DNA from: Escherichia phage AnnaHegner_Bas87
Length of the DNA: 64,000 bases
Sequence record: PQ850594.1
Strand: one strand, 5' to 3'
In this document: positions 5,220 to 47,521 of the stretch, piece by piece
How positions within the stretch are numbered: the first letter of the stretch is position 1
How the letters are laid out: each line of letters opens with the position of its first letter
The notes under the pieces: generated by a model
The model's database searches: none
Told to the model about the DNA's origin: nothing
What the model saw: only the letters and a program-made list of their open reading frames with translations
Translations under genes and position numbers: made by a program

Positions 5220-6275
5220 ATGGCAAATCCAACTTTATTTGTATCTTACGACCAGAATGGTAAAAAACTTTCTTTTGCTAACTGGATTTCTGTCCTGTCT
5301 CCGCAAGACACTCCGTTTGTGTCTATGACTGGTAAAGAGTCTATCAATCAGACTATTTTCAGCTGGCAGACCGATGCTCTGGCGAGCGTAGATGCTAACA
5401 ACGCCCACGTCGAAGGCTCTCGTGCTGAAGATGGCGAAATGAAACCGACTGTAATCAAGTCCAACGTTACCCAAATTCTGCGTAAAGTTGTTCGTGTTTC
5501 TGATACTGCTAACACCACCGCTAACTACGGTCGTGGTCGTGAACTGATGTATCAGCTGGAGAAGAAAGGTAAAGAGATTAAACGTGACCTCGAGAAAATC
5601 TTGCTGTCCGGTCAGGCTCGTACCGATATTCTGGCAGACCAGTATCTGACCAACTCTGCAACTGATCCTGCTGTTGTAGGTCAGAATGATACCTCAGCTG
5701 CTCGTAAGACTGGTGCTTTCCAGTTCCTGTGTGCACACAATGGTGTTACTGGTGGTGTTGTTAAGAAAGAAGATGGTCCTGCTGACCCGGATACTGGTGC
5801 AGTAACTGTTAAAGTTGCACAGAATGCTTCTAACCCGACTACGAACATCGGTTTTGATGAAGCTGATATCTTTGATATGACTCTGCAACTGTATACCGCC
5901 GGTTCTGAAGCAGACATCATCATGATTAACCCTGCTCACGCTAGCATCTTTGCTAAGCTTCAGGAAAACTCTGTTGGTTCTCGTCAGCGTATCTTTGAGA
6001 ACACCAAACAGTTCATCTATGAAGTTAACAGCATCACTGACCCGCTGGGTCAGAGCTATAAAATCATCGTTAACCGTTGGATGCCTGCTGATGCAGTTTA
6101 CTTCTTCCGCAGCTCTGACTGGACTCAGATGGTTCTTCGTGCTCCGAAACGTACTGAACTGGCGAAAGATGGTTCTTACGAGAAATGGATGATCGAAATG
6201 GAAGTTGGTCTGCGTCACCGCAACCCATATGCTTCTGGTGTACTGTTCACCGCTGCGGGAAAGGTGGAGGCGTAA
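5220..6275 (+). CDS. major capsid protein (0-frame product)
   Basis: 351-aa ORF after scaffold with strong RBS; followed in -1 frame by an Ig-like extension. Confidence 0.7.
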   Translation: MANPTLFVSYDQNGKKLSFANWISVLSPQDTPFVSMTGKESINQTIFSWQTDALASVDANNAHVEGSRAEDGEMKPTVIKSNVTQILRKVVRVSDTANTTANYGRGRELMYQLEKKGKEIKRDLEKILLSGQARTDILADQYLTNSATDPAVVGQNDTSAARKTGAFQFLCAHNGVTGGVVKKEDGPADPDTGAVTVKVAQNASNPTTNIGFDEADIFDMTLQLYTAGSEADIIMINPAHASIFAKLQENSVGSRQRIFENTKQFIYEVNSITDPLGQSYKIIVNRWMPADAVYFFRSSDWTQMVLRAPKRTELAKDGSYEKWMIEMEVGLRHRNPYASGVLFTAAGKVEA

Positions 6276-6296
6276 CAGTTGACAGCGTAACTGTTA
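6257..6296 (+). promoter_or_regulatory. -1 programmed ribosomal frameshift signal: slippery heptamer G_GGA_AAG plus 9-nt spacer plus 8-bp stem-loop
   Basis: GGGAAAG at 6257-6263 in capsid 0-frame 10 nt before its TAA; perfect hairpin TAACAGTT (6273-6280) / AACTGTTA (6289-6296); -1 frame stays open to 7630. Confidence 0.6.
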
Positions 6297-7630
6297 GTCC
6301 CGCGTCAGTGGCTATTCTGCTGACCGGGGCTACCCAACAGTTTACAGCTGAAGCAGAACTAAGCGATGGCTCCACATCTACTACAGGCTTCGATTGGTCA
6401 GTAGCCGGTGGTGGGGCCATTTCTGTTTCTGGACTGTTCACTGCTCCGGGTTCGCCTCAAACCGCTGATATTGCAGTGACTGCTACTCTTAAAGGTGTAT
6501 CAGGTACTGCCGTTATCTCGGAAATTAAAGCTCCAATCCCTGACCCAGCTTCCATTGCCGTGACTGGTGGTGGTCTGACTGGTGACACTCTTACCTTAAC
6601 TGTTCCAGATGCTACCAACCTGACTGCTTCTGTATCTCCTGCTGGTGCACCTCAAGGCGTTACTTGGGAAATTGCAGATCAGACTAAGGCTACGGTAACA
6701 ACTGCTGGTCGTGTAACTGCTGTTGAAGCGGGCACTACTACTCTTACAGTTAAATCTTCTACTAAACCTTCTGTCACTAAAGTAATTAACCTTGTTGTTA
6801 ACCCCCAGCCTCCGACTATCGTAGCTAAAGCTGCTATTACTGGAAAATCTGGTGGAGATACCGTTGCTTTTACAGACATGTTTACCGTCCAACGCTCGGC
6901 TGCTAGTGATTATACTTTTGTAGTTACTCCAACTGCTGCTGGTACCGTGAATGCGTCCGGTCAGCTCTCTTTAGCTAGTACCGCTAGTGGTAACGTAACT
7001 GTTAAAGCTACTCACAAGACAGAAACATCTGTTACTGCAACTGCTAATATTAATGGTGTAACCCCTCTCCCAACGATTGAAGCGAAAGCTCCTATCACTG
7101 GTAAAGTAGGTGGTTCTACCACTGCATTCACCACCATGTTTACAGCAACCAATTCAGCTGCGTCTGACTACAATTTCGTAGTAACTCCAACTGAAGCAGG
7201 TACTGTAAGTGCTGCTGGTCTTCTGACCTTAGCTGACAGTGCTAGTGGAGATGTTACAGTAAAAGCTACTCATAAAACCCAGACTTCAGTAACTGCAACT
7301 TCTACCATAGAAGACGTAATACCTAAACTTACTGGTTTAGTTGTTTCAGCAGTGTCTGATGGGTCAGTAGCTGGTGATACTTTGACAATCTCAGACCCAA
7401 GCCAACCGGGAGTTTTTAACATAGCTTCTGTTCCTCAAGGTGCTCCACTAGGAACTATCGTATATGATGTAGAAGGCACAGATGCAGACAAATTGAGTAT
7501 TACCATTTCTGGTGATGCTTTAACAATTACGCTCTCTGGTGCTATCGCTAGTGAAGATACTAAAGTAACCCTGAGAACTGACCCAGGTTCTACAGTGTTC
7601 AAAACCTACACCGTTAAATCTGGTGCTTAA
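6257..7630 (+). CDS. -1 frame C-terminal extension of major capsid protein with Ig-like (Big_2-type) domains
   Basis: open -1 frame from slippery site; Big_2-like sequence (VTVSPASVAILLTGATQQF...) and internal repeats; no independent RBS at the in-frame Met 6185. Confidence 0.55.
   Translation, partial: GKGGGVTVDSVTVSPASVAILLTGATQQFTAEAELSDGSTSTTGFDWSVAGGGAISVSGLFTAPGSPQTADIAVTATLKGVSGTAVISEIKAPIPDPASIAVTGGGLTGDTLTLTVPDATNLTASVSPAGAPQGVTWEIADQTKATVTTAGRVTAVEAGTTTLTVKSSTKPSVTKVINLVVNPQPPTIVAKAAITGKSGGDTVAFTDMFTVQRSAASDYTFVVTPTAAGTVNASGQLSLASTASGNVTVKATHKTETSVTATANINGVTPLPTIEAKAPITGKVGGSTTAFTTMFTATNSAASDYNFVVTPTEAGTVSAAGLLTLADSASGDVTVKATHKTQTSVTATSTIEDVIPKLTGLVVSAVSDGSVAGDTLTISDPSQPGVFNIASVPQGAPLGTIVYDVEGTDADKLSITISGDALTITLSGAIASEDTKVTLRTDPGSTVFKTYTVKSGA
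6812..7327 (+). repeat. tandem duplication, 2 x 258 bp (86-aa units) within capsid Ig-like extension
   Basis: units starting PTIVAKAAITGKSGGDTVAFTDMFT... and PTIEAKAPITGKVGGSTTAFTTMFT... are clearly homologous. Confidence 0.6.
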
Positions 7631-7730: not shown

Positions 7731-8477
7731 ATGGCAATGCCTGACGTTCAATATCCCATCAATACCTACGGATGGCTCAAGAAAGCTGTGTCCCTCTGGG
7801 CTGACAGGGATGATGATGAATTTGTTAATCAGATTCCAAACTTTATTAACTTTGCAGAGAAAGAAATCTATCGTAACTTACGAATTCCTCCTCTGGAAAA
7901 AGAAGTATATTTAGATATTAAAGATGGTGTGGCTTTTATTCCACCAGACTACTTAGAAGCTCAGTGGATGATGAGAGCAAGTAATGGACATATGTTCCGA
8001 GTAACTTCTCCAGAAGAGTTAGATTGGCTGAAAAGAAATAACTCAGTAAACCCAACTAACTGGAATCAGGGAGAAGTGAGTTTTACTAGGTTGGGAAGTC
8101 GGTTCCTGTTCTACCCAGCCATCAACGCTGATACTCCGGTCTACCCTGATGATGGAAGCCCTCTTATTCCAGCGGAGAATTCGGTAATTCTTAGCTATTA
8201 TGCAGACCCTCCGGAGTTTCATGAGGATTCTGATACAAGTGCAATTTTAACAATAGCTCCAGAGCTTCTTCTATATTTCACATTACGTCATGCAAGCTTA
8301 TTTGTCCAAGATGATAATGGGGTTCAGAAGTGGTCTGCTTTAGGGAAAGCTATTCTAGATGAGGTAGTTGAGCAGAGTAAGAAAGCTGAATACTCAGGCT
8401 CTCCTCTAGTTATTCCTAGAACTATTGACCGTCTTCACAGCTCTCGTGAGTTGTATGGAATCAAACACTACAGTTAA
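7731..8477 (+). CDS. hypothetical virion structural protein
   Basis: 248-aa ORF with AGGAGG RBS in structural block. Confidence 0.5.
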   Translation: MAMPDVQYPINTYGWLKKAVSLWADRDDDEFVNQIPNFINFAEKEIYRNLRIPPLEKEVYLDIKDGVAFIPPDYLEAQWMMRASNGHMFRVTSPEELDWLKRNNSVNPTNWNQGEVSFTRLGSRFLFYPAINADTPVYPDDGSPLIPAENSVILSYYADPPEFHEDSDTSAILTIAPELLLYFTLRHASLFVQDDNGVQKWSALGKAILDEVVEQSKKAEYSGSPLVIPRTIDRLHSSRELYGIKHYS

Positions 8478-8486
8478 GGAGAGATT

Positions 8487-11264
8487 ATGATCGTTTATAA
8501 CAACCAAGCACCAGCTAATCCTAATAATGTTGGTCAGTTTGGTGCTACAGAAGGCTCTATCGGAGCCTATAAACAAGCAGCGGAATATGCTGCTGATTCT
8601 AAATATTGGGCACTTTTAGCAGAATCTAAGTTTGGGACAATTGATGATCTGATTGCACAGGTAGAGCGTCTATACCAACAAGGTGTTTTACTCCGAGAAG
8701 ATATTGAAGATTTGAAGCAGGATTTTGCTGCTCAAGACGTTCGCTTAATGAACCTGATTGCTCAAACAAACGCTGCTGTTGCAGATGCCAATAACTCAGT
8801 TGCACTTATTGATCAAAAGATTGTAGAAGTCCAGAAGCAATTGGATATTCTAATGGATATGAAGGTTACTGTCACTACCCTGCCTCCGGGTTCTCAAGCT
8901 ACTGGCTCTTTTGATAACCAAACTGGTGAGATTAAGCTGGGAATTCCTGAGGGTGAAAAAGGTGCAGATGGCTCTGTAACTGACTTATCAACAGTATCTT
9001 CTGGGGTTCCCGAGTTAGGGGATTTAGGTTTTTATGTAGACAAAGATGATAACACTGTACATAAAACCACCCTAGAAAACATTGCTAACCTGATCCCTTC
9101 TGTTCGCTCTATCTCTGTCAATGGTGGAGAGGCTCAGGATGGTGACGTTGCTTTGGATATTAATAAAACCACAGTAGGTTTAGGTAATGTTCTTAATGTA
9201 GCTCAGTACAGTCGCCAAGAGATTAATGATAAGTTTGACAAACCTATTAAGATTTATCAATCCAAAGCAGAAGCAGATGCAAATGCTCAATATCGTCAAG
9301 CCGGAGAATCTGTTTTAGTTTGGGAAGACACTCAGTATGTATTCTACACTGTTGCTGCTAATAAAACCTTAACTCCAGTTAAATCTGAAAGTCGTATATT
9401 GACAGTAAACTCAAGATCTCCCGACTCTACAGGTAATATTGATATTACAATACCTACAGGGAACCCTTCTCTATATTTGGGTGAAATGGTAATGTTTCCA
9501 TATGACCCTAACAAAACTGTAGCATACCCCGGTGTGTTGCCTGCTGATGGTAGATTAGTTTCTAAAGAAAACGCATCTGACTTAGGTCCATCTCTTGTTA
9601 GTGGACAGTTACCAGTAGTTAGCGAAACCGAGTGGCAAGCTGGTGCTAAACAATATTTCTCTTGGGGTAAGTTAGCTGATGGTATCACTGATGCAGACTC
9701 TACCAACTTCATTAATATTCGACTTCCAGACTGGACTGGTGGAGAAGCCATTCGTGCTCCAGATTCTATTAAAGACTCTAATTACAAAGGTCGTATCCAG
9801 AATCAGATTCCTTACATTGTGACCGTAAATGGTAAAGGTCCAGATGATGCTAATGGTAATGTGGTATTATCTGCCTCTAATATCGGAGCAGCTGCTTCTG
9901 GCGCTAACTCGGATATCACTTCACTCTCCGGTTTAACTACACCACTATCTCCAAGTCAAGGTGGTACAGGGGTAACCGATCTTGGAATGCTTCGTAGGGC
10001 TATTCTAGTTCAGGGTGTAGAGTGTAATGATCAAGCAGGTCCACAGTCTTATAACAGCTACAAATCCCCTAATGGGACATATACTTTTAAAGTTGATAAC
10101 TCTGGGTTAGTTGCTGCTATTAATACAGGCACAGAAGCAGTTGTTCCTTTTGCAGTAAGTGCAGGAGGTACAGGAGGCACTACTCCGGCTGAATCTCGTA
10201 GTAATTTAGGGCTTGACAGGGTTGATCAAAGAGAATTAGAGACTGTAATCTACTCTCCCGACAAGAACTCCTATATCTTTATGAACAACGGAGATTGGGG
10301 GTGCTTTAGTAATGTTTCAGGGACTATAGCTCTTTCTATTCCGCGTGGTGGTACAGGTGCACAAAGTGTTGAGGGAGCTAAAACTAATCTCGGAATCGAT
10401 AAGTTTGTACAAAGTTCTACGGATACTAAGGTGTTGGATGGTGAAGGGACTCATACATTCTTTGTAGCCGGAAATGATTGGGGGTATTTTAATAACGCTG
10501 ACTCTGTACGAGTTGCGCTTCCTGTAATAAGTGGCGGTACAGGAGGCACTACCCCAGCTCATTCATGCGAAAATCTATCTGCGCTACACACTCAATATGG
10601 AGCTGACACTTTTTATGGTAGTGAAGATTTACCTTCTGGAATAGGTTTTTATTCTGGTGACTCTTCTCCTTTTCCGGGAGGCAACGGGGCGCCTTACACT
10701 TACGCCGAAATTATGACTATCGCTGAAGGTGGTCGTGGTGGTAACTGGTCTCAGATTGGTTTCTCTACTATAACTAACCAAGCTCCTCGGTATCGTCAAA
10801 GAACTAATGACCCAGCTTTAATTACAAACTGGAGAGATTTCTTAATCCGAGATTTAAACACAACAGTAGATGTTAATGGTTTTGTCAAAATAGCGTCGCC
10901 TATTGTGAAAGTTAAGTCTGACGGCTCTTTTGAAGTTAACGATGCAGCGGTTGGTGCGACAGTAGAGAAGCTGGGGGTTGGTATTTATAAGGTTTCTGGT
11001 GTCTTAGGTTTTAACTCTGACCCTTCTTGGGGAGGGACTTCTGGTGGATTCTCAGTTCCTTACAACTCTAACGGATTGGCTCTGCTCTGGGTCGACTATG
11101 AGATTGAAGAAACTGGTGATATTATCCTGAAAACCTACCATCGTGTCCATGCTGATGCTCCTGTTTTTGCTAGAAATGAAATAGATGGATTAGCGGATGG
11201 GGATCCTGTAGATATTCCAGAAGGTCGGTGGATTGATCTTCGTGTCGAAATGCCATCCAAGTAA
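8487..11264 (+). CDS. tail fiber protein with repeated GGTGG-T motifs
   Basis: 925-aa ORF; N-terminal coiled coil; recurring ...SGGTGGTTPA.S..NLG.. segments typical of phage fiber repeats. Confidence 0.55.
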   Translation: MIVYNNQAPANPNNVGQFGATEGSIGAYKQAAEYAADSKYWALLAESKFGTIDDLIAQVERLYQQGVLLREDIEDLKQDFAAQDVRLMNLIAQTNAAVADANNSVALIDQKIVEVQKQLDILMDMKVTVTTLPPGSQATGSFDNQTGEIKLGIPEGEKGADGSVTDLSTVSSGVPELGDLGFYVDKDDNTVHKTTLENIANLIPSVRSISVNGGEAQDGDVALDINKTTVGLGNVLNVAQYSRQEINDKFDKPIKIYQSKAEADANAQYRQAGESVLVWEDTQYVFYTVAANKTLTPVKSESRILTVNSRSPDSTGNIDITIPTGNPSLYLGEMVMFPYDPNKTVAYPGVLPADGRLVSKENASDLGPSLVSGQLPVVSETEWQAGAKQYFSWGKLADGITDADSTNFINIRLPDWTGGEAIRAPDSIKDSNYKGRIQNQIPYIVTVNGKGPDDANGNVVLSASNIGAAASGANSDITSLSGLTTPLSPSQGGTGVTDLGMLRRAILVQGVECNDQAGPQSYNSYKSPNGTYTFKVDNSGLVAAINTGTEAVVPFAVSAGGTGGTTPAESRSNLGLDRVDQRELETVIYSPDKNSYIFMNNGDWGCFSNVSGTIALSIPRGGTGAQSVEGAKTNLGIDKFVQSSTDTKVLDGEGTHTFFVAGNDWGYFNNADSVRVALPVISGGTGGTTPAHSCENLSALHTQYGADTFYGSEDLPSGIGFYSGDSSPFPGGNGAPYTYAEIMTIAEGGRGGNWSQIGFSTITNQAPRYRQRTNDPALITNWRDFLIRDLNTTVDVNGFVKIASPIVKVKSDGSFEVNDAAVGATVEKLGVGIYKVSGVLGFNSDPSWGGTSGGFSVPYNSNGLALLWVDYEIEETGDIILKTYHRVHADAPVFARNEIDGLADGDPVDIPEGRWIDLRVEMPSK

Positions 11265-11307: not shown

Positions 11308-13476
11308 ATGTCTAGAGAGTTAATGCCCAAATCTGGGATAATGATGCCTCACGTGGTAGTTACTAGAGATGCCGCAGTAGTGGGTGTATCTACTGTAGAT
11401 GGGGCCGCTGGTGCTATCAACTTAACAGAAAAATACCTTCAGAAGTCTGACGCTGAAGCAACCTATCAAACGAAAGCAGAAGGGGCTACTAAGCAATATG
11501 TAACCGACGCTATCAACCCCATTATGACAAATGCTCTTTTTAAAGATGACCCCTTTGTTAATAATGACACACCTATTCGCTCTGGCGGTGGTAATGGTGT
11601 TGAATCGGTAGATATGATTAAAGTCACCCCTGAGAACACCATCAAACTAGGGAGCTATGCTTCTTCTGTTCAGGGGGTTGAGATTCATTCTGCTGGTCGT
11701 CTTCAGGTTGTTGACCAGAACGACTCTGGGGTCGAAACTAAATACCCGGTATACTCTAAAAGATATCGCCCAGAAGTTGAGGATTTACCTTTCGCTTCAA
11801 TTGGTTCCTATGTTAAAGACTCCAAAGGACGCACAATTGGTGTAACTCGTACTGGCATCAACTCTGATATCAAACAACTCACCCAAAAGGTCACATTTAC
11901 CCAACCTGTAACCGTACCTGATGCTGTGGGTGATTATGATGCAGTTACTTTGAGACAGCTTCGTAATAGTGGTGGCGGTTCTGGTGGTCCTACCATGAGC
12001 GGTATCTCTAACTTCGGAATTGGCGACTTTCATTTACGTGACAGCCGTGCTTTCATCCCAGCTTTTGAGGTAGTGTCTGATGGGCAGCTTTTGAATCGTG
12101 CTGACTACCCAGATTTATGGGCTTATGCACAACTGCTATCTCCAATCGAAGACTCTCTTTGGTTGTCTAATATCTATCAGAGGGGTAGGTATTCTACCGG
12201 AAATGGTACAACAACTTTCCGTGTTCCTGACCGAAATGGTATCCAAGAGGGGTCACTGAGAGCTTTATATGGCCGTGGTGATGGTGGTAATTCTGCTGCA
12301 AATGGTCAAGTGTTTGATTCTGCTGCACCGAATATCACATATGCGTCCCCTCACACAATGGTAACACTAGCCTCCGCTCCGGGGCAGGTGGCGACTGACG
12401 GGGCACTTCAATCGATCACTTCTACAGACAATGTGGCTCCAGTGGGGACTGGAGGTAAATACATATCCACAAACTTTGACGCATCACGTTCTAGTCCTAT
12501 TTATGGCCGCTCCACTGAGGAGATTCTGACCCGTAACTTTGTAGGCGTTTGGACTATTCGTGCGCATGGTGGTTTTACTGCTGCTAATACTTCTTGGTCA
12601 GTTATTAATAGTGATGCAAACCGTCCTGCTGGTGGAACTCGAGCAACTAGTGGTTCTGTTGTTGCTGAATATAAAATTGGTTCAGAAGTAGAGGCTTCTA
12701 CTACGCTCCAAACTGATGCTTATATCGACGGAGTTTATTATGGGATTATCAATGTTTATAATAAAACCAAAGGAGTTACCAAGCAATTAGCTTTTGACGA
12801 TTCTGGAACCCTGAACTCTGATAGATATGCTGCTCGGTTTGGCACTTTGATGGCTTGGAGTGAAACAGGAACTAAGAGAGGCACCTTCTCTATGGACAAC
12901 CAAGGGATAGGGACTAACTTCCCCTTCAACTCCATACTAAGTGCTTCTCAAGCAACTAGTGGGGGGTACAAAACTACCACTCATGTTGGCATGATTCACA
13001 ACGATGCTGAGTCTTTTGCTGATTCATGCTGGCATGTTGCAGGGGATGAAGACAACAAATACGGTTGTCGTTTAACCCTTAGGCCAAGCAGGAATGAGAT
13101 TTATTACTACACTTGGCAGCCCGGCTCCACTGGAACTTACACTCTTGCTATGAATCCTGTGTCTGATGAAAAGTTGAAACATAACATCCAAGATATCTCG
13201 CCTGATGAAGCAATTCGTGCGATAAAAGGTTTGGATTTCAAATCGTTTGTGTACAACAATGATAATCAAGGAAGAACTCGTCGTGGTATCATTGCACAGC
13301 AGGCAGAGAAAGTTGAACCTCTTTATGTTAAAACTCGTAAATTCCATGACAACGATGGGGTAGAGCAGGAACAGAAAGAGTTGGATGCAACTCCAATGCT
13401 TTTAGATACCATGCAGGTTGTTCAAGATCTGCTGAAGCGTATTGAAGTTCTAGAAGCGAAGTTAGCAGAGAAGTGA
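11308..13476 (+). CDS. tail fiber/tailspike with C-terminal intramolecular chaperone (peptidase S74-like) domain
   Basis: 722-aa ORF; C-terminal ...NPVSDEKLKHNIQDISPDEAIRAIKGLDFKSFVYNN...GIIAQQAEKVEPLYV... resembles autocleaving chaperone domain of endosialidase-type fibers. Confidence 0.6.
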   Translation: MSRELMPKSGIMMPHVVVTRDAAVVGVSTVDGAAGAINLTEKYLQKSDAEATYQTKAEGATKQYVTDAINPIMTNALFKDDPFVNNDTPIRSGGGNGVESVDMIKVTPENTIKLGSYASSVQGVEIHSAGRLQVVDQNDSGVETKYPVYSKRYRPEVEDLPFASIGSYVKDSKGRTIGVTRTGINSDIKQLTQKVTFTQPVTVPDAVGDYDAVTLRQLRNSGGGSGGPTMSGISNFGIGDFHLRDSRAFIPAFEVVSDGQLLNRADYPDLWAYAQLLSPIEDSLWLSNIYQRGRYSTGNGTTTFRVPDRNGIQEGSLRALYGRGDGGNSAANGQVFDSAAPNITYASPHTMVTLASAPGQVATDGALQSITSTDNVAPVGTGGKYISTNFDASRSSPIYGRSTEEILTRNFVGVWTIRAHGGFTAANTSWSVINSDANRPAGGTRATSGSVVAEYKIGSEVEASTTLQTDAYIDGVYYGIINVYNKTKGVTKQLAFDDSGTLNSDRYAARFGTLMAWSETGTKRGTFSMDNQGIGTNFPFNSILSASQATSGGYKTTTHVGMIHNDAESFADSCWHVAGDEDNKYGCRLTLRPSRNEIYYYTWQPGSTGTYTLAMNPVSDEKLKHNIQDISPDEAIRAIKGLDFKSFVYNNDNQGRTRRGIIAQQAEKVEPLYVKTRKFHDNDGVEQEQKELDATPMLLDTMQVVQDLLKRIEVLEAKLAEK

Positions 13477-13566: not shown

Positions 13567-13785
13567 ATGAAAATGATGAAACAGGTAACTTATGGTCTAG
13601 CTTGCTTAGGGACAGGTTTTGTGATTTCCACAGCAGTACCTGTAAATGCAGTAGGCTCTCATTCTATTATAGAAGCTCCTGTAGAGAAGCTTAGTTCTCA
13701 ATGTAAACAAAGGACCATTCAAAATAATTTGGTTGTTATTTGCCCAGACGCTCAATCTTCAGCTCTGAGAAAAATTCTTCCTTAA
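13567..13785 (+). CDS. small protein with N-terminal signal/TM segment (holin or secreted protein candidate)
   Basis: 72-aa ORF, strong RBS, hydrophobic N-terminus, immediately upstream of lysozyme. Confidence 0.35.
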   Translation: MKMMKQVTYGLACLGTGFVISTAVPVNAVGSHSIIEAPVEKLSSQCKQRTIQNNLVVICPDAQSSALRKILP

Positions 13786-13818: not shown

Positions 13819-14310
13819 ATGGACGCTATCGCATTGCCGCCTGTACAGATGAGCCTAAGTCCGGCTGGTATGGAGTTTATCATGAAGCATGAAGGCATGA
13901 GAACTAAAGCCTATAAAGACTCCGCTGGAATCTGGACTATATGTGTAGGGGCTACGCGCGATATGAATGGGTATCCAGTAAGACAAGGATTAACGTATTC
14001 TATAGAGGATTGTCTAGCTCTGCTAGATAGAGACACACAAGACTCTGTTCGTGCTACTCAGAAAAACATAAGAGTTCCTATGCTAGCTCATGAATTTGAT
14101 GCTGTCACTTCTTTCAACTTTAATGTTGGTGGTGGTGCTTTGTCAGCTTCAAAACTTAGGAAAGTGATCAACGGAGATGTGAAGGGTGATGTTTACTCAG
14201 AGTTCTTACGTTGGGATAAGATAACTGTTAAAGGTGTAAAGCAGCGGAGTCCGGGACTTCACAATCGCAGGGTTGCAGAAGCAAATCTATACACTACAGG
14301 AAAATATTAA
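13819..14310 (+). CDS. lysozyme (GH24, T4-lysozyme-like) endolysin
   Basis: E-x8-D-x5-T catalytic spacing in ...KHEGMRTKAYKDSAGIWTICVGAT... Confidence 0.75.
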   Translation: MDAIALPPVQMSLSPAGMEFIMKHEGMRTKAYKDSAGIWTICVGATRDMNGYPVRQGLTYSIEDCLALLDRDTQDSVRATQKNIRVPMLAHEFDAVTSFNFNVGGGALSASKLRKVINGDVKGDVYSEFLRWDKITVKGVKQRSPGLHNRRVAEANLYTTGKY

Positions 14311-14322
14311 TGGAGGTGCCTT

Positions 14323-15126
14323 TTGGCTATCGAAACAACTGCAGTAGTTACTACCGACTTAAACCCTCTGTACCCACGGGACAGGGATTATCTTTATGAA
14401 GGGGCTGCCCAGATACGACTGGTCAAACAAGTCTTAATTAACACTTTCCCTAACATCACAGAGCCGGTTCAACTTGATTCGGATTCTTTCAATATCCTAG
14501 CAAACAAGGTCTCTTTTACTGGAGACTCTATGGATGTTGGTGGTTTGATGATCAAAAACTTAACTCCGGGAACAGGAGACAAAGATGCTGTAACCAAGGG
14601 TCAGATGGAAGCTTTCATGTTAAACTGGATGCAGAATAAACTCTATCGTATTGGAGCTTACTATATCACTGAAGAAGATATCAACCCCGGAGATTCTAGC
14701 TCTCTTGGCTTCGGTTCTTGGGCTAAAGTAACTGGTGTTGTTATGGGTACTGGTGTTGTTAACCCTGACGGTTCGGTTCCTAACGCCCAGCGTGTGGAAT
14801 TCCAAGCAGGTGGCACAGGAGGTCGAGTATTCAACACAATCCGTGCTGACAATATGCCTCTTACTACAATCAATGGTTCCAGTTTTCAAGTTAGTTCTTA
14901 TTCTCACTCACATAATATCACGATGGGTCGTGGAGATGCTAGCGGTCACAACAGCAGTCCTAATTGGTACAGTCCGGGTGGTGGTTATACTCAGGTAACT
15001 GATACTAACACTCACTCTCACTCGATTACAGGTTCTGTTAGTTTTGGACGTGATGATGTATCGAGACAACCTATCAACACTTTGCCGCCTTTCAGAGCAG
15101 CGCATATCTGGAGACGTATTAGCTAA
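14323..15126 (+). CDS. tail fiber-like protein with His-x-His motifs
   Basis: 267-aa ORF (TTG start after GGAGGTG); HSHNIT and HSHSIT motifs and RGD near C-terminus. Confidence 0.45.
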   Translation: MAIETTAVVTTDLNPLYPRDRDYLYEGAAQIRLVKQVLINTFPNITEPVQLDSDSFNILANKVSFTGDSMDVGGLMIKNLTPGTGDKDAVTKGQMEAFMLNWMQNKLYRIGAYYITEEDINPGDSSSLGFGSWAKVTGVVMGTGVVNPDGSVPNAQRVEFQAGGTGGRVFNTIRADNMPLTTINGSSFQVSSYSHSHNITMGRGDASGHNSSPNWYSPGGGYTQVTDTNTHSHSITGSVSFGRDDVSRQPINTLPPFRAAHIWRRIS

Positions 15127-15135
15127 GGAGGAACT

Positions 15136-18100
15136 ATGGCGCTTTATCCAATAAAATCTTTAGGGGCTGTAGGGGTTATTGCTGACCAAGCTCCGACTGA
15201 TTTAGCACCTAATGCTTTCACTAATGCTATCAATGCCCGCTTTGTAGAGCAAAGAGTTTTTAAGACGGGGGGCAATGCCCCTCTTTCTTATGTAGAAGAA
15301 GATAAAGAGATTACACCACTTTCTTTTATATCAATGCCTTTTGACTACTATAGTGCAGGTAATAGCTTTCTGATTGTTGGTACAGACAAAAAGCTATACA
15401 AGCTAACAGATGAAAGTTTGACAGATATTAGCCGAAAGGTTGCTACTGTCACAAAAAGAGCTTCCGCTTCTATTAAGATATATCCGGTTGTTTCTCAGAT
15501 TGTTCCTAAAGAAACTTCTATTTCAATGAATTTCAATCAAACTAAAGCCTTGGAAGTTTCTATTCTTCCTGAAGATGCTAATAACACAGCTTTAGTTTGG
15601 GAGGTTAGTAATTCTTCTTATGGTAAAGTAGAAGCTGACACCGAGAACCCTAAAACTGCAACCTTGACGTCTTATGAAAAAGAAGGGAATTTAGTAGTTA
15701 CTGTATCAACAGCTGATAAATCTATTAGTGCTCAGATTGCAGTAAACATCATAGATGGTGATTCTGGTATCTTCTTAAGTCAGGATACAATAACTGTCCG
15801 CAAAGGTGGTAACACAACGCTAACTGCTGTTACTGGAAAAACTCCTGTAACTTGGGTCTCTAGTAATGCTTCTGTTGTGTCTGTAACACCTAATGCTAAT
15901 ACACTGACAGCTACTTTGTCTGCTAATGGTGAGGGTACTGTAACAATAACTGCTGATAACGGAACTAAGAGTGCTTCTTGTCAAGTTACTGTTATACCTC
16001 AGATAGATAGTATCACTCTGAGTCAGACAAGCGTTCAAATGAGCAGGGGTACTCAGTATGTTTTAACTGCTACGGTTAATCCTTCAGATGCTCCCAATAA
16101 AAGCATAACTTGGACTTCCTCTAATCCTACCATTGCCACAGTTTCTGGAAATAGTACAGAAGCGGTAATAACAGGGTTACTAGCTGGGTTTACTGAAATC
16201 ACAGCTGTTACTCAAGAGGGTGATAGATCAGCAACCTGTACAGTGAGAGTTGATTTAGCTGGGAGAATGATGCGAACTTCTGCAATGGCTTTATCAGAAC
16301 CTGTTGTAGATTCTATACAAGAAGAAGAAACCAATAATACTCCTATCGAATCAGAAGAGGTTTTATATTTTGTTAATGAGCCATCTGGAGTTGATACCTC
16401 AGGAATGTATGAAGGTAACAACTTCTATGATTACTCAAACGTCAACGATATGGAAGGTTTTGCACGAGCTGCACTCATGTCCAGCGATACTCCGTTGCAA
16501 TCTTTATCACTAGATATCATCGATGCCTCTCTTGATGTTGGGGAAGATATTGTAATCACAGCCAATGCTTTGCCTGAGGGAGAGTATTTCTATCAGTGGA
16601 CAGTGGACAAAGCAGGATATGTTTCAACCACATCTACTACCGGGAAATCTCTAAAACTGACAGCTATTCGTAAAGGTGAGATCAAAGTTACTTGTACTGC
16701 TAGTCAAATGACTCAGAAAGATTATGATGCTTTTGACGACTATCCTTGGTATCACACCATAATCTCTAACTGTGCAGTGGCTACCACTCACTATGAAACA
16801 CCACAGGTCAAAGAATTTGAATCTGAGTATTTCGTAGATCTTCCGGGATGGGGTGAGCAAACAGTCGTTGATAATGATGGCAACCCTTCTGTTAAGAAAT
16901 TTAACTGGAAGTGTGAGCGTATTCGTGCATTCAACAACAGACTTTTTGCTCTGAATATGAGGGAATCTAATGCATCTGGTGTAACTACTCACTACCCTCT
17001 AAGACTTCGGTGGTCGAATTTCGCTAACGAAAACAAAGCTCCATCTCTTTGGGATGATTATGCTTATGATCGTTTAACAACTTCAGACCTATCAGCAAAC
17101 ATTGTTGGTCAAACTGAGGCTTTGGAAAATGGGTACGCTGGGTATATAGATTTAGCAGATTCTAACGGAAGCTTGATTGATGTACTTCCTCTGAAAGATT
17201 ACCTTTTTGTTTACACGGAGTTCGAAACCTACATTGGCTCTCCAACCAATAACACATATCAGCCCCTTATGTTTAAGAAGCTGTTTAATGACTCTGGCAT
17301 ACTTGCTCCTGAGTGTGCAGTTGAAGTCGAAGGTGGACACTTCGTAGTAACTCAAAATGATGTGATCTTACATAATGGTGCATCTAAAAAATCTATAGCA
17401 TCTAACCGAGTCAAGAATCTTCTCATTAATGAGATCTGTCTAGTAAACCCTCTAGCTACTAGAGTTCACCTACACCAAGACAAGAAAGAGGTTTGGGTTT
17501 TATATGTAGGTCCGGGAGAGCCTAAAGAGAGTTTTGCTTGTAATAAAGCCGCTGTTTGGAATTATGAGTTTGACACTTGGTCTTTCCGTACAATACCATA
17601 TGCTCAGTGTATTGGGTTAGTCGATCCACCAGTTCTTGAGAGAGGTCCAATCTGGGCAGATTTTCAAGAGATCACTTGGGATGATCCCTCTATTAACCAA
17701 TTAGTCTGGAGAAAGGATGCTAATAACTTCCGTCAAAGGATTACAATAGTTGGCTCTTTCCTGAAGGGATTCTATCAAGTGGATGTTGGTGCTCTGGACT
17801 ACATCTACGATAGAACCAATGATAGGATTATAGAAAAACCTTTAGAAATGAGGCTAGAAAGAACTGGTATTGATTTTGATAATGTCACTAATGAGTGGAA
17901 TCAAAAACATATTAATAGATTTAGACCTCAAGTTACTGGTACAGGTACTTATACTTTTGAAGTCGGTGGAAGTCAATTCTCAAACGAGTATGGACACAAT
18001 CACTCAACTAAAGAGTTTAGGGTAGGCTCAGATCGTCATGTATCCGTGAGACTGAACCATCCATACCTATTCTATAATGTTATAGATAATGATGTTAACA

Positions 18101-18156
18101 GTAATGCTTCTATGAATGGTTTAACCATAGAGTTTAGTGTTGGCGGTCGAAGATAA
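15136..18156 (+). CDS. large virion protein with three Ig-like (Big_2-type) domains
   Basis: 1006-aa ORF; three ~80-aa segments with Big_2-like pattern (e.g. ITLSQTSVQMSRGTQYVLTATVNPSDAPNKSITWTSSNPTIATV...). Confidence 0.55.
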   Translation: MALYPIKSLGAVGVIADQAPTDLAPNAFTNAINARFVEQRVFKTGGNAPLSYVEEDKEITPLSFISMPFDYYSAGNSFLIVGTDKKLYKLTDESLTDISRKVATVTKRASASIKIYPVVSQIVPKETSISMNFNQTKALEVSILPEDANNTALVWEVSNSSYGKVEADTENPKTATLTSYEKEGNLVVTVSTADKSISAQIAVNIIDGDSGIFLSQDTITVRKGGNTTLTAVTGKTPVTWVSSNASVVSVTPNANTLTATLSANGEGTVTITADNGTKSASCQVTVIPQIDSITLSQTSVQMSRGTQYVLTATVNPSDAPNKSITWTSSNPTIATVSGNSTEAVITGLLAGFTEITAVTQEGDRSATCTVRVDLAGRMMRTSAMALSEPVVDSIQEEETNNTPIESEEVLYFVNEPSGVDTSGMYEGNNFYDYSNVNDMEGFARAALMSSDTPLQSLSLDIIDASLDVGEDIVITANALPEGEYFYQWTVDKAGYVSTTSTTGKSLKLTAIRKGEIKVTCTASQMTQKDYDAFDDYPWYHTIISNCAVATTHYETPQVKEFESEYFVDLPGWGEQTVVDNDGNPSVKKFNWKCERIRAFNNRLFALNMRESNASGVTTHYPLRLRWSNFANENKAPSLWDDYAYDRLTTSDLSANIVGQTEALENGYAGYIDLADSNGSLIDVLPLKDYLFVYTEFETYIGSPTNNTYQPLMFKKLFNDSGILAPECAVEVEGGHFVVTQNDVILHNGASKKSIASNRVKNLLINEICLVNPLATRVHLHQDKKEVWVLYVGPGEPKESFACNKAAVWNYEFDTWSFRTIPYAQCIGLVDPPVLERGPIWADFQEITWDDPSINQLVWRKDANNFRQRITIVGSFLKGFYQVDVGALDYIYDRTNDRIIEKPLEMRLERTGIDFDNVTNEWNQKHINRFRPQVTGTGTYTFEVGGSQFSNEYGHNHSTKEFRVGSDRHVSVRLNHPYLFYNVIDNDVNSNASMNGLTIEFSVGGRR

Positions 18157-18191: not shown

Positions 18192-19172
18192 TTGGAGGTA
18201 CTTATGGGTGCTGGAGGTTTTCGAAAGAATACTGGTAGAAACAACACCACACTTCCGTACAATGTTGGTTTTCTAAACAATGTGCAGGATACAGAAACTT
18301 ACAACGTTGCCGTCTATGATGAACTACAAAAAGTTAGTACAGCAACTAATCAGATGTTTCAAGCTATTGATGAAATACATGAAGAAATTGATGTTAGGAT
18401 TAAAGCTCTTAATGCAATGAATCTTCAATTTGATGAACTTGAAAACAGAATTACTACAGAGATCGAAACAGCTATTGCTGATATTCAAACACAGATGGGC
18501 AATCTGTCCACTGAAGATATTTGGGATAATTCAGTACAACCGCCAGTTAAGCTAGAAAGTTCTATGGCAGGGTTTAAAACTTCTATAGAAGGTAATGAGG
18601 TTAAGATACAATCTGTTGAGGGAATCGTAAACCAGCAGGGAGAGGAAATTGGCTTAGTTCAAACAGAGATCTCCAACATTAACAGCAGTCTATCTTCTTA
18701 TATGAAGCTATCTGACTACGAAGCTACGTGGGGAATTAACTCAAATGTCAACGGTAGGTATGCTGGTGTCAAACTAACTAACAACGGCACGAATAGTCAG
18801 TTCCAAGTTACAGCTGATAAGTTTGTTGTAGGTGATGGTAACTCGGGTAATACACCTTTTGTATTTGAAGGAGGTCGAGCTAAGATAGAGTTTGCTGATA
18901 TTAAGAACGTCAATATCACAACTGCTCAAATTGCTAATGCTCGTATTCAGTTTGCTCAAATAGATAACGTGTGGATTACTGATGGTCAGATTGCCAATCT
19001 TACAGCTAACAAGATCACTGCTGGCTCTATGAGTGGTTCAAACTGGAGACTTACTGTTGGTGGGGATTTTGTGATGGGTGGCACAGGTGGGGCACAGCTC
19101 TGGATGAATGGTAATAGAATTGATTTCTATGATGGGAGCGGTGCACTGAGAATCAGAATAGGGAGTTGGTAA
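18192..19172 (+). CDS. tail fiber-like protein (coiled-coil N-term, beta-rich C-term)
   Basis: 326-aa ORF; likely true start ATG at 18204 after GGAGGT. Confidence 0.4.
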   Translation: MEVLMGAGGFRKNTGRNNTTLPYNVGFLNNVQDTETYNVAVYDELQKVSTATNQMFQAIDEIHEEIDVRIKALNAMNLQFDELENRITTEIETAIADIQTQMGNLSTEDIWDNSVQPPVKLESSMAGFKTSIEGNEVKIQSVEGIVNQQGEEIGLVQTEISNINSSLSSYMKLSDYEATWGINSNVNGRYAGVKLTNNGTNSQFQVTADKFVVGDGNSGNTPFVFEGGRAKIEFADIKNVNITTAQIANARIQFAQIDNVWITDGQIANLTANKITAGSMSGSNWRLTVGGDFVMGGTGGAQLWMNGNRIDFYDGSGALRIRIGSW

Positions 19173-21024: not shown

Positions 21025-22077
21025 ATGTCTCTTTTCGGTTCTGCTCCTAAATCTAAGACTACGGTAGCTCCGTCTTCTCAGGTTGATGCTCTTCTGAAAC
21101 AGATTGTAGCAAATGCTCAGGCTATGAATCAAAACGATCAAGGTTTTATTAATCGTAACATAGCAGGTTTTAATGAAAATCAAACAGCAGCTCTTTCTAA
21201 TTTAGCAAATTCTAACACACTCAACCAACTCAGTAAGATGTACACCCCTAGAACTCAACAAGGGTTGGACCAGATGAATGAGTTGGCTCAGAAATATCAA
21301 AACCTAGTTAATAAAGGTGGTATCACTGCTCAGGATGTTAATAATTTTAGCTCTGGATTGAATAGCTCTGCTTTAGCTAAGTCTACAGGTAAAGCTGCTG
21401 CTAATGTATCTCTTGGTAATGGTTCTGATTCAGGTTCTCTTAGACGTGCTGCTGCTCAAGGTGCTGCTCTCTCTTCAGCGAATACAAACCTTTCTCGTTC
21501 TATTCAAGGTAAAAACATGGGTGTTAGCAATCTTATGAATAACAACTCCTATCAGCAAGGTTTGCTCAATGCTCAATCGGGTCTAGCAAATCAGAATCTG
21601 AATCTAGGAGCTGCTGGGGTACAAGCTGGTCAACAGGCAATACAGAATCAGCTCACTGCTGGGAATCTTCAACAACAGCAAGATCAACTCCAAGCTAACA
21701 ACAATTGGGAGAATGCTATTGGCAATCAGCAGTATGGTTGGAATCAGCTTAACAACCAGCTTAATGTATTAAACTCAGTAAGCCCAATGGCTGGGTACAC
21801 CATTACTAACAAAGGTGCTGCCCCTAATGTTTCACAACAAATCCTTGGTGCTGGGGTTACTGGTCTTGGTATTGCTGGACGTCTAGGTGCTTTTACCCCT
21901 AATCAGCAAACTACTAATGCTTGGAACTCATACAATGCTTCTGGAGGTCAAGCTGGGATGGCTGGTCCTATGATTGGTGGCTCAAACCTGTCTCAACAGA
22001 ATGGTCAGAGCAACTGGTTATCTACCGCAGGAAGTAATATCTTAGGTGGTGTTCTAGGAGCCTTTGGAGCAAATTAA
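21025..22077 (+). CDS. Q/N/G-rich low-complexity virion protein
   Basis: 350-aa ORF; N-terminus MSLFGSAPKSKTT; poly-Q/N segments. Confidence 0.5.
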   Translation: MSLFGSAPKSKTTVAPSSQVDALLKQIVANAQAMNQNDQGFINRNIAGFNENQTAALSNLANSNTLNQLSKMYTPRTQQGLDQMNELAQKYQNLVNKGGITAQDVNNFSSGLNSSALAKSTGKAAANVSLGNGSDSGSLRRAAAQGAALSSANTNLSRSIQGKNMGVSNLMNNNSYQQGLLNAQSGLANQNLNLGAAGVQAGQQAIQNQLTAGNLQQQQDQLQANNNWENAIGNQQYGWNQLNNQLNVLNSVSPMAGYTITNKGAAPNVSQQILGAGVTGLGIAGRLGAFTPNQQTTNAWNSYNASGGQAGMAGPMIGGSNLSQQNGQSNWLSTAGSNILGGVLGAFGAN

Positions 22078-22086
22078 GGAGGAGCT

Positions 22087-23055
22087 ATGGCTTTATTTGG
22101 TAGTGGGAGTAGCAAGACTACTTCTAAAATGACAAGACCTGACTACATTCAGTCCTATATTGATCAGTTGGTCAATCAGGTTAATAACACTAGTTCAGGC
22201 GATTATGTGTATCGAGAAAATGTTGGACTTAATCAAAACCAGCAAGAAGCTCTGAACAATCTATCACAATCTGGTGCATTAGGTGCACTTTCTTCTCAGT
22301 ATATGGATGCTGCTCAATCTGGTTTAGGTTATCTAGATAATGCATACTCTGGATATAACAACCTGTCTAACTCTGGTCAAATCACTGGGGAACAGATTGG
22401 TGCTCTTGCAGGCCAGCTCTATGACGACGAGGCTGTGCAAGCAGCTATTGCAGCGAATAATGAACAAACCCAACAGAGTTTGGCTAGGAATGCACTTCCT
22501 CAAATCTCTCAGCAGTTTGCTGGTCAGCAAGGTTCTGGTGCACGTATGGCTAAATCTTTTGCTCAGGGTGATGCTCTGAACCAGATGCAGAACACAGCAA
22601 CTAATATTACTAACAGTGCTTATGACTCCGCTCTAACTCAAGCACAGAACATTCTTTCTGGTAATAGACAAACACAAGCATCTGCTTTGGGTGGTTTATC
22701 TAACATTGGCTCCAATCTTGCTAATCTAGGAAACCAAGCTGGTCAGTTATCACAACAGCAAATGATGAATCAGTGGAATGCAGGACTGCAACAGCAGCAA
22801 CAACAGCAGTCTGATTTGAACAATGCTTATGAGAATGCTCAGAATGCCGCTAATTGGGGTTGGCAGGATATTAACAATCAACTAGGTGCTGCCGGGGTTC
22901 TTAATGGAGCTTTAGGGACAACCACAACTACTAAAACATCTGGTGGTAGTGGAGGCTTCCTAGGTGGTGCTGCTAGCGGTGCTGCTGCTGGCTCAGCTTT
23001 TGGCCCTTGGGGTGCTTTAGCTGGCGGTGTTATCGGTGGCTTAGCTAGCTCTTAA
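22087..23055 (+). CDS. Q/N/G-rich low-complexity virion protein (paralog of 21025-22077)
   Basis: 322-aa ORF; N-terminus MALFGSGSSKTTSK; similar composition and motifs. Confidence 0.5.
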   Translation: MALFGSGSSKTTSKMTRPDYIQSYIDQLVNQVNNTSSGDYVYRENVGLNQNQQEALNNLSQSGALGALSSQYMDAAQSGLGYLDNAYSGYNNLSNSGQITGEQIGALAGQLYDDEAVQAAIAANNEQTQQSLARNALPQISQQFAGQQGSGARMAKSFAQGDALNQMQNTATNITNSAYDSALTQAQNILSGNRQTQASALGGLSNIGSNLANLGNQAGQLSQQQMMNQWNAGLQQQQQQQSDLNNAYENAQNAANWGWQDINNQLGAAGVLNGALGTTTTTKTSGGSGGFLGGAASGAAAGSAFGPWGALAGGVIGGLASS

Positions 23056-23069
23056 TTAGGAGAATAATT

Positions 23070-24737
23070 ATGCAACAAACTTCTTATGCGTATCTTCGCA
23101 GTCAAGACCCAAGAAATCAGATTTATGGTGTTAAACAAGGGGCCGCTTCGGCCTCTCCATACATGGCAAGACCTGCTTATCCAGCTGCTGATGTTTCTAT
23201 GTATAACCGGAGACCTCCTGCCTCTCCTGTAGGTTTATCCTCTCTTGTTGCTACTACTCAAGAAGACCAAGAAGCTATGTTAAATCCGGGATTTAGGCAG
23301 CGCCTTATGGAAGCAGAGAATCAAGGGACTCCTACAAGCCTTCAGGGTATTGATATTGGCGAACCAGCTCCTGCTATGAATAACCCAGATCTATCCTCTG
23401 ATGAGGGTCTACAAGCTGCTGGGTTGATGCCTAGTGACCCACTTCCTGTTACTCCTCCTCGTAAACCTCTGGAAGAAACAGATAAAGAGTTCTCTCCAGT
23501 TCAGGTGGAACAGGCTCAGAATGTTATTAACACTTTAGCTAATAGTAATCCAGCTCCTGAAGGTATGGCTGGTGCAACTCGTGCTAAAGACCAAGAACGT
23601 ATTAATAATGATATTATGGAAGTAGCTAAAGCTAAAGATCCAGCACAAGCTTGGAATGAGCTTCAGAAGCAACCGTTCTACCAGAAGTCTAGTTTCTATA
23701 CTGGCTTAATGGGTGTTGGTCTTTCTATCATGTCAGGTAAATCCCCTATTGAAGCTTTCCAGATTGGTTCTGGCTTAGCTGCTCAGGATGAAACTAAACA
23801 ACAACTAGAAGCCAACCGTGATGCTCTGTTAGAACAAGGCTATTCTCAAGATTCAGTTGCTGCTGCAATTGCTTCGGGAGATCCCTCCCTTCTCAAAATG
23901 CGTCAGATTAGTCCTCAGGAGAAGATGGCTCTTGCTGCTCAGGATGAAGAACGTGCTAATCGTGAGTGGGATAGACGTCAACAGATTCAAGAGAATTCGA
24001 TGCGGGAACGTGCTGCTGAAACTCGTCGTGCTGCTGAAGAACGTGCTAATGCTCAGTTCGAGAAACAGAAAGAACTTATTGGATATCGTGATCAAGTTAA
24101 AGCAGAGCGTGCAGAGAAGGCTGCTCAGAGCTTTACTTTCAACCCTAAAGAAGTTCGTCTGGCTCAGAACACAGCAGAAGGTACAGTTGCTAAGCAGTGG
24201 GCAGAGAAAGCAGGTCTGTTCAACCAGTCTCATAAGGACTTGGATTTAGCAGACAAAGCTGTTAAGGATAAGGATTACCAAACTGCTCGTTCTGCTTACA
24301 TGCAGGCTATTATGAACTCCGCAAGGGCAGAAATTGGTGCTAACCGTTCTCTCCAAGCTGATGACTTGGCTCACTTTGCAGAAGACCCGTCAATCTTCGT
24401 TAAGGTTGGTAATACTTGGTCCCTTAAAGCAGGCTATCGTCCTTCTGATGCTGCTCTGTCATATGCTCGTAAGCAGGCAACTGTTGGTGCTACTTCCGCT
24501 GAGAAAGGTGTGAAGGATGCTAAGAAAGCAACAATTGAGGCATATATCGGTTCTGGTATGGATAAGAAAAGAGCTACAGCTCTTGTCAACCGTGCTATCC
24601 CATCTGCTGGTTTCTATGACCCATTCGGTACGTTTGAGAGTGAAGCTGAAGCAGCTGTTGGTGGAGATACTACAAATCCTCGCTTAACAGGTGCTCTTTC
24701 TTCTTCAGCGGCAGATACGAGTTGGATGTTCCAGTAA
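23070..24737 (+). CDS. hypothetical internal virion protein
   Basis: 555-aa ORF with RBS in structural block. Confidence 0.45.
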   Translation: MQQTSYAYLRSQDPRNQIYGVKQGAASASPYMARPAYPAADVSMYNRRPPASPVGLSSLVATTQEDQEAMLNPGFRQRLMEAENQGTPTSLQGIDIGEPAPAMNNPDLSSDEGLQAAGLMPSDPLPVTPPRKPLEETDKEFSPVQVEQAQNVINTLANSNPAPEGMAGATRAKDQERINNDIMEVAKAKDPAQAWNELQKQPFYQKSSFYTGLMGVGLSIMSGKSPIEAFQIGSGLAAQDETKQQLEANRDALLEQGYSQDSVAAAIASGDPSLLKMRQISPQEKMALAAQDEERANREWDRRQQIQENSMRERAAETRRAAEERANAQFEKQKELIGYRDQVKAERAEKAAQSFTFNPKEVRLAQNTAEGTVAKQWAEKAGLFNQSHKDLDLADKAVKDKDYQTARSAYMQAIMNSARAEIGANRSLQADDLAHFAEDPSIFVKVGNTWSLKAGYRPSDAALSYARKQATVGATSAEKGVKDAKKATIEAYIGSGMDKKRATALVNRAIPSAGFYDPFGTFESEAEAAVGGDTTNPRLTGALSSSAADTSWMFQ

Positions 24738-24762
24738 TCTAAGACCTAAGTCCTATCTCTTA

Positions 24763-24771
24763 TAATGTATA
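24763..24771 (+). promoter_or_regulatory. phage promoter-like motif TAATGTATA
   Basis: exact 9-mer 37 nt upstream of ATG 24808; AAGGAG RBS between. Confidence 0.45.
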
Positions 24772-24807
24772 TAGGAGGTAGGACATTTTTATTTATAAGG
24801 AGACGTT

Positions 24808-46987: not shown

Positions 46988-47521
46988 TTATACACCTTTA
47001 GATGCAACTACCCCATTGCTGCCATTGTAACGACCCTTCACTGCATAGGAATCATCACCAGCGTGAGAGTGTTCAAACATAACCATCTGACCAACACGCA
47101 TCCCAGCACGAACTCGTAAGCTGTGGTTGTGGGTAACGTTATGGAATTCAAAGGTCAGCTTACTGCTGTTAAACCCTGCATCAGCCCAACCAGCATGTAA
47201 GTGGTTCAAACCACAACGAGCCATTGAGGAGCGAAGTACAAACAGACTTGAGATGTTATCTGGAAGGTTAAACTCTTCCATTGAGTGCGCTAAGAAGAAT
47301 TGTCCCGGAGTGATGACAATACCATCTTCAGGGATTTTCACCTCTTTCCACTTGAGGTTTTCTTTAGCATCAATGTCAACAATGCCGTCAGCCTGTTCTT
47401 CAACAAGGATAGTATCACCAATACGGATATCCACACTAGCAGCGTTAACATATTTATGCTCCGCATCTAAAAAGCCATTATCAATAACACTGTGTAATTC
47501 TTGAGAACCTAAAAGACTCAT
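46988..47521 (-). CDS. dCTP deaminase / dUTPase-family enzyme
   Basis: ...NAASVDIRIGDTILV... and downstream motifs typical of dCTP deaminase. Confidence 0.6.
   Translation of the reverse strand: MSLLGSQELHSVIDNGFLDAEHKYVNAASVDIRIGDTILVEEQADGIVDIDAKENLKWKEVKIPEDGIVITPGQFFLAHSMEEFNLPDNISSLFVLRSSMARCGLNHLHAGWADAGFNSSKLTFEFHNVTHNHSLRVRAGMRVGQMVMFEHSHAGDDSYAVKGRYNGSNGVVASKGV

Follow-up and report, generated by a model that had tools for sequence, protein, structure and literature searches.

A short tail fiber of Escherichia phage AnnaHegner_Bas87, orthologous to SU10 gp16, with two conserved His-x-His pairs

Results

Tail gene block of the phage

The window, i.e., the whole 64,000-nucleotide stretch of Escherichia phage AnnaHegner_Bas87 (record PQ850594.1) that was analyzed, carries at positions 14323-15126 of the plus strand a gene encoding a protein of 267 amino acids (aa), an orthologue of the short tail fiber gp16 of phage SU10. 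The region is 96-98% identical to phages NC-B, Bas86 (OliverMaurmann), SU7, and IME267 and matches 98 records, almost all of them from phages of E. coli or Shigella that belong to the Gordonclarkvirinae (Kuravirus, Suseptimavirus, and their relatives). Alignment to relatives covers only 81-90% of the window's initial 25 kb. By these alignments, the window is that of a Gordonclarkvirinae (Kuravirus/Suseptimavirus-like) E. coli podophage. The tRNA scan of the whole window found none.

The gene begins with a TTG codon, and the ribosome binding site GGAGGTG (14312-14318, plus strand), read from the sequence, lies 4 nt 5' of it. The start context matches that of SU7 base for base; in SU7, a ribosome binding site is annotated there and the corresponding coding sequence is given an equal length. 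In GenBank records, the gene often appears as encoding a "baseplate protein", a "hypothetical", or a "tail protein".

The Pfam and PDB matches together with the annotation of the neighbors placed the gene in a block of the order holin (13567-13785), endolysin (13819-14310), short fiber, nozzle, and needle. The nozzle protein, the partner that carries the fiber, has 1006 aa (15136-18156, plus strand), matches PDB chain 7Z47_G over its full length with E 0, and contains three Big_2 stretches. The tail needle (18204-19172, plus strand) matches 7Z4B_EA with E 1e-191 as well as Pfam Phage_Tail_Tip. The program-made open reading frame (ORF) of the needle starts at TTG 18192 (18192-19172, plus strand), but SU10 7Z4B_EA, with its 322 aa, aligns from residue 5 of this ORF and the SU7 needle is annotated with 322 aa, so the needle, also of 322 aa, probably starts at ATG 18204. 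Upstream of the block lie the adaptor gene (7731-8477; PF24175 SU10_adaptor) and the genes for the proximal (8487-11264) and distal (11308-13476, plus strand) subunits of the long tail fiber. The order of adaptor, two long-fiber genes, holin, endolysin, short fiber, nozzle, and needle is identical in SU7 and SU10.

Several other products of the window drew attention. The distal long-fiber subunit ends in a Peptidase_S74 intramolecular-chaperone domain (aa 619-672), has a Collar match below the threshold, and bears an RGD of its own at residue 323. The ORF at 6185-7630 (plus strand), after the major capsid gene, encodes an Ig-like (Big_2) protein of up to 481 aa; as delimited, this ORF overlaps with the capsid gene, the real start probably lying near 6287. 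The SU7 counterpart, named "Ig domain containing protein", has only 171 aa versus up to 481 aa here, which suggests that the head-decoration protein of this phage is longer. No Pfam family matched the four consecutive large ORFs 3' of the transglycosylase gene (21025-29253, plus strand; 350, 322, 555, and 1481 aa), which in position correspond to the ejection/internal virion proteins of SU10.

Orthology to SU10 gp16 and conservation of the docking interface

The search of PDB sequences aligned residues 1-267 of the protein with residues 1-267 of 7Z47_I, gapless and with 83% identity (E 1e-156). This best match is chain I of 7Z47, 7Z4B, and 7Z4F, the cryo-EM structures of SU10. The protein also matched phrog_6465 ("tail protein") over its full length (E 3e-107) and Pfam PF21939 (Gp10_C) with 39.8 bits at a gathering cutoff of 27, aa 105-266 being aligned with positions 3-139 of the 139-position profile. 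These matches make the protein a member of both the SU10 gp16 family and Pfam Gp10_C, and we regard it as a short tail fiber with near certainty. The label "tail fiber-like", given to it in the initial annotation from the letters alone, was therefore right, the orthologue having been seen by cryo-EM as a trimeric short tail fiber on the virion.

In SU10, gp16 forms the short tail fibers, six trimers of which are attached to the hexamer of the nozzle protein gp17 (Siborova et al. 2022, PMC9509320). The fiber measures 210 Å. For the proximal domain (residues 1-98), a model was built into a 3.8 Å map, and the central domain and the domain for receptor binding are AlphaFold-multimer models fitted into density of 7 Å and 15 Å (PMC9509320). 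The same paper describes the fiber domains, the rotation of the fibers by 135 degrees, and the nozzle, likens the central domain to the tip of T4 gp12, and considers the architecture of the central domain and tip to be shared with JUB59 C24 (6OV6). The short fibers of these phages were treated as conserved terminal-receptor binders in the BASEL study.

The length of 267 aa, the gene neighborhood, the two His-x-His (HxH) pairs, the RGD triplet, the dock motif, and the tryptophan triad of the partner are common to SU10 gp16 and the protein studied here. The 45 substitutions between them are densest in the needle and tip (75% identity versus 89% in the central domain); among them, I24 of SU10 is L24 here, and HTH at the second HxH site is HSH here. 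Nothing suggests a function different from that of SU10 gp16. The fiber, its place on the virion, its role in the formation of the nozzle, and the proposal of Fe2+ binding by the His pairs are already known, having been published in 2022 for this orthologue.

The protein was divided into three parts followed by a last strand. The proximal helical domain (aa 1-98; 14323-14616, plus strand), which holds Y23-L24-Y25, docks on the nozzle protein by analogy with the SU10 structure. The central domain (approximately aa 99-186; 14617-14880, plus strand) has, according to hhalign and Pfam PF21939, a fold like that of the T4 gp10 C-terminus and gp12. The distal needle with the receptor-binding tip (approximately aa 187-245; 14881-15057, plus strand) was delimited from the model and the column identity and comprises an outgoing strand, a variable loop, and a returning strand.

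Tyr23-Ile24-Tyr25 of SU10 gp16 clamp the dock loop of the nozzle protein (PMC9509320). We found this interface conserved on both sides, with Y23-L24-Y25 on the fiber and three tryptophans, W840, W848, and W858, on the dock loop of the nozzle protein (17653-17709, plus strand). The +8/+10 spacing of the triad is that of W839/847/857 in SU10, and the numbering is shifted by one because the nozzle protein has 1006 aa here versus 1005 in SU10. A comparable arrangement is known from Pseudomonas phage Pa223, whose tail fiber gp60 (PDB 9NXK), with a tip like that of gp37, docks on an attachment loop of the tail hub that bears three tryptophans. The two fibers have the N-terminal docking module in common, detectable similarity being limited to residues 4-65 (E 3e-9 with the family profile).

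Position and conservation of the His-x-His pairs

The motifs HSHNIT and HSHSIT and the RGD triplet, reported earlier from the C-terminal third of the protein, were confirmed at residues 195, 231, and 203-205, respectively. The first HxH site, H195-S-H197, corresponds to positions 14905-14913 and the second, H231-S-H233, to positions 15013-15021, both on the plus strand. When the residues of the protein itself were shuffled (n = 200,000), at least two HxH appeared in 0.4% of the shuffles. Across the 85 ORFs of the window, 19 HxH were counted versus 6 expected, with at least two in four ORFs. Since HxH is approximately 3-fold over-represented across the window, motif counts do not single the protein out, and the case for the two sites rests on conservation. 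Two ORFs of the minus strand (37906-39753 and 46988-47521) contain three HxH each, some of which may be metal sites of enzymes.

The close set consisted of 25 full-length homologues from a large protein collection, with 51-91% identity. H195 and H197 were invariant in all 25 of them, and H231 and H233 were kept in 24. The middle residue varied at both sites, being S, A, R, N, H, V, T, E, or D at the first and S, T, D, G, K, or Q at the second. The one homologue that had no second site at the aligned position (P0025) indicates that this site is not indispensable. The His pairs lie in the least conserved segment of the protein: the column identity was 0.40-0.62 in residues 191-240 versus 0.7-0.9 elsewhere. 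Between the two sites, the homologues carried at least three unrelated tip sequences, 'GRGDASGHNSSPNWYSP', 'ANVRLSIDDRHFYVESVDGRYPN', and that of a third group. A variable loop for receptor binding, kept in place by a constant structural clamp on each side, would be expected to give such a pattern.

The wider family was collected in an exhaustive profile search (E ≤1e-3), which gave 1875 cluster representatives, mostly of 260-290 aa and with the same architecture. In the alignment of 128 full-length members, H195 was present in 98, H197 in 99, H231 in 97, and H233 in 85 (66-77%); the core residues W133, G167, G242, W263, and R265 were also kept. Many distant members (among P0040-P0073) have a further HxH right after an N-x-P motif, as in 'NLPAHTHE' or 'ELPSHSHS', and distant relatives bear three or four HxH pairs spaced along the needle. 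Where distant members have this third HxH, the Gordonclarkvirinae clade has 'NMPLTTI' (N-M-P-L-T-T at aa 177-182, 14851-14868), and so one putative metal site seems to have been lost in the clade.

The SU10 paper flags both His pairs and proposes that they bind Fe2+ as in T4 and JUB59 (PMC9509320). It names them His194/196 and His230/232, whereas in chain 7Z47_I, as in the protein studied here, they are residues 195/197 and 231/233; the numbering of Tyr23-Ile24-Tyr25 in the same paper agrees with the chain, and the difference looks like an off-by-one in the text. To that published account, the conservation of the His pairs, as read from the alignments, is added evidence.

Model of the needle and its likeness to other phage proteins

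The AlphaFold2 monomer model, computed with the 25-sequence alignment, had a pLDDT of 55.8 and a pTM of 0.31, such low confidence being expected for one chain of an intertwined trimer. In this low-confidence model, the His pairs were carried by strands 189-201 and 222-234, with a low-confidence or disordered loop, 204-220, between them. Residues i and i+2 of a β-strand point to one and the same face. The trimer model of the SU10 authors is said to be compatible with the His pairs lying at the threefold axis (PMC9509320).

Metal sites of the His-x-His type in the long and short fibers of T4, invoked in the initial annotation, are well documented. T4 gp12 binds Zn2+ through H445-K-H447, the only HxH that gp12 has. 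The pair follows the TGG motif of the collar-like domain, a location topologically equivalent to that of the HxH here. The needle of the T4 long fiber protein gp37 (PDB 2XGF) has seven Fe2+ sites, each formed by H-x-H on the β-strands of three chains. Like gp37 and gp12, which are trimeric fiber tips with axial metal at H-x-H, the protein studied here has the same motif, with putative metal binding. It resembles gp12 also in its role as a secondary, irreversible-binding fiber deployed after the long fibers. It differs from the T4 fibers in having two HxH sites versus seven in gp37, in being a much shorter fiber, and in its attachment to a podovirus nozzle instead of a myovirus baseplate.

Comparisons of profiles did not extend this likeness to homology. 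The family profile showed no relationship to T4 gp12 in hhalign (E 0.81), and the profile search of the PDB with E up to 10 returned no chain of gp37, gp12, or JUB59 (6OV6). The hhalign comparison with residues 450-540 of T4 gp10 aligned only residues 104-186 of the protein (probability 81.5%, E 1e-5). The parts alignable with the T4 gp10 C-terminal domain (PF21939; 2FKK) are the central domain and the last strand, with GFGSW, AGGTGG, N-x-P, and the terminal hydrophobic-W-R. Between the N-x-P motif and the final strand, the HxH needle is inserted; T4 gp10, a baseplate wedge protein and not a receptor-binding fiber, lacks this insertion. T4 gp10, the founder of Gp10_C, is also devoid of any HxH; with only the central domain alignable, the name Gp10_C is thus uninformative on the metal sites.

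The fold search with the poor monomer model returned SU10 (E 1e-18) and the Pa223 fiber (1e-4) and, below significance, the KP1 baseplate protein, the C-terminal domain of T4 gp10, and JUB59 C24. The matches to gp10 and JUB59 were weak (E 0.2-1.4, TM <0.25) and, coming from a poor model, count only as consistent with the comparison made by the SU10 authors; for C24 of the Bizionia prophage JUB59 (6OV6), the likeness was not significant (E about 1 with the low-confidence model). Altogether, the protein would work like the T4 HxH fiber tips through a likeness of architecture, homology to them being not demonstrable.

Discussion

The metal-stabilized tip put forward in the initial annotation coincides with the hypothesis already published for the same residues of SU10; the strong conservation of the His pairs around a free middle residue supports it. 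Binding of one axial metal ion by six histidines at each HxH site is, in our estimation, probable. An improbable alternative, to which we would give roughly one chance in eight, is that the His pairs, instead of serving as metal ligands, contact phosphates or sugars of LPS, act as a pH/protonation switch, or hold the trimer together by an ion-free ladder of His-His stacking and hydrogen bonds. Metal has been seen neither in SU10 gp16, the tip of which is a model in density of 7-15 Å, nor in any close relative; the over-representation of HxH in the proteins of this phage (19 versus 6 expected) makes the motif unspecific by itself, and the family member without the second site fits a non-metal role as well. 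On the other side, histidines spaced strictly as H-x-H on β-strands, the residue between them being free to vary, form the pattern of the Fe2+ sites of T4 gp37, and they match H445-K-H447 of gp12. Residues in contact with a receptor should vary with the tip, but the His pairs stay constant over three tip types, and the three or four HxH pairs along the needle of distant relatives are typical of axial metal sites.

The RGD triplet (aa 203-205; 14929-14937, plus strand) opens the variable loop of the tip and is probably incidental. We consider it very unlikely that it is a functional adhesion motif recognizing a bacterial receptor or the integrins of the mammalian gut, despite its position in the distal loop and its presence, down to 69% identity, in all 11 homologues with this type of tip. 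Common ancestry would by itself account for such retention in a single tip type. The triplet is absent from the other 14 of the 25 homologues, its columns show no consensus among the 128 members of the wider family, and its frequency is that of chance, with 4 RGD in the 85 ORFs of the window versus 4.8 expected and an RGD in 8.3% of the 200,000 shuffles of the protein; the bacterial host, in addition, has no integrins. On these grounds the triplet is best regarded as incidental, in line with the earlier remark that it may be coincidental. An integrin-type RGD was rejected for its lack of conservation and its chance frequency, and from the alignments and counts the triplet is to be ascribed to chance plus the shared ancestry of the closest relatives. 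Least probable of all, with hardly any weight left to it, is the reading of the protein as a baseplate component instead of a fiber or receptor-binding protein. The Pfam Gp10_C match and the "baseplate" annotations in related genomes speak for it, but only one domain, residues 104-186, is similar to T4 gp10. A baseplate is absent from podophages, and in the cryo-EM of SU10 the orthologue is seen as six trimeric fibers on the nozzle; the baseplate assignment was rejected for these reasons.

The reading of the protein as a nozzle-docked short tail fiber with metal-clamped needle, deployed during nozzle formation, is as a whole the best explanation, and we hold it to be likely. We observed directly the gene, its orthology, the residues of the dock interface, and the retention of the His pairs among homologues. 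The location, the trimeric state, and the rotation are carried over from the cryo-EM of SU10, and we infer metal binding, the identity of the metal, and the receptor.

By orthology with SU10 gp16, three chains would form a straight fiber approximately 21 nm long. Its N-terminal helical domain (aa 1-98) would clamp, via Y23-L24-Y25, the nozzle loop, which would present its three tryptophans in pseudo-threefold symmetry. The central gp10_C/gp12-like domain (approximately aa 99-186) would be followed by an intertwined β-needle running out to the tip and back (approximately aa 187-245), and the last strand (aa 246-267) would return to the central domain. Each chain would contribute H195/H197 on the outgoing and H231/H233 on the returning strand, and with one His pair per strand and chain the trimer would surround the threefold axis with six imidazoles at each site. 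Each site may then hold one metal ion octahedrally, as does Fe2+ in the T4 gp37 needle or Zn2+ in T4 gp12, and the needle would be stiffened by these two sites, which flank the variable receptor-binding loop (aa 198-230).

During infection, binding of the long fibers would free the short fibers, which would swing by 135 degrees. Alternating with the straightened domains of the nozzle proteins, the swung fibers would complete a 28-nm nozzle and thereby bring their tips onto the outer membrane, where the terminal receptor would probably be the LPS core. Docking of the trimer and its rotation into the nozzle as in SU10 are very likely by orthology. For the proposed binding of the tip loop 198-230 to a receptor of the cell surface, probably the LPS core, we see somewhat better than even chances.

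A bolder extension would make the HxH clamps the fixed "bookends" of an exchangeable receptor-binding cassette of approximately 33 residues and would add a part for iron in host recognition or for the RGD tip in mammalian adhesion. Iron might, e.g., serve in the engagement of a siderophore or iron-uptake receptor, as in the "Ferrojan horse" idea. The one observation pointing to the bookends is the pattern of a variable tip between conserved clamps, and this extension seems to us a long shot.

In practice, the result is of use in two ways. It allows the gene to be annotated correctly, and it offers the His pairs as conserved landmarks that frame the variable tip, which are relevant to the host-range engineering of Kuravirus-like therapeutic phages.
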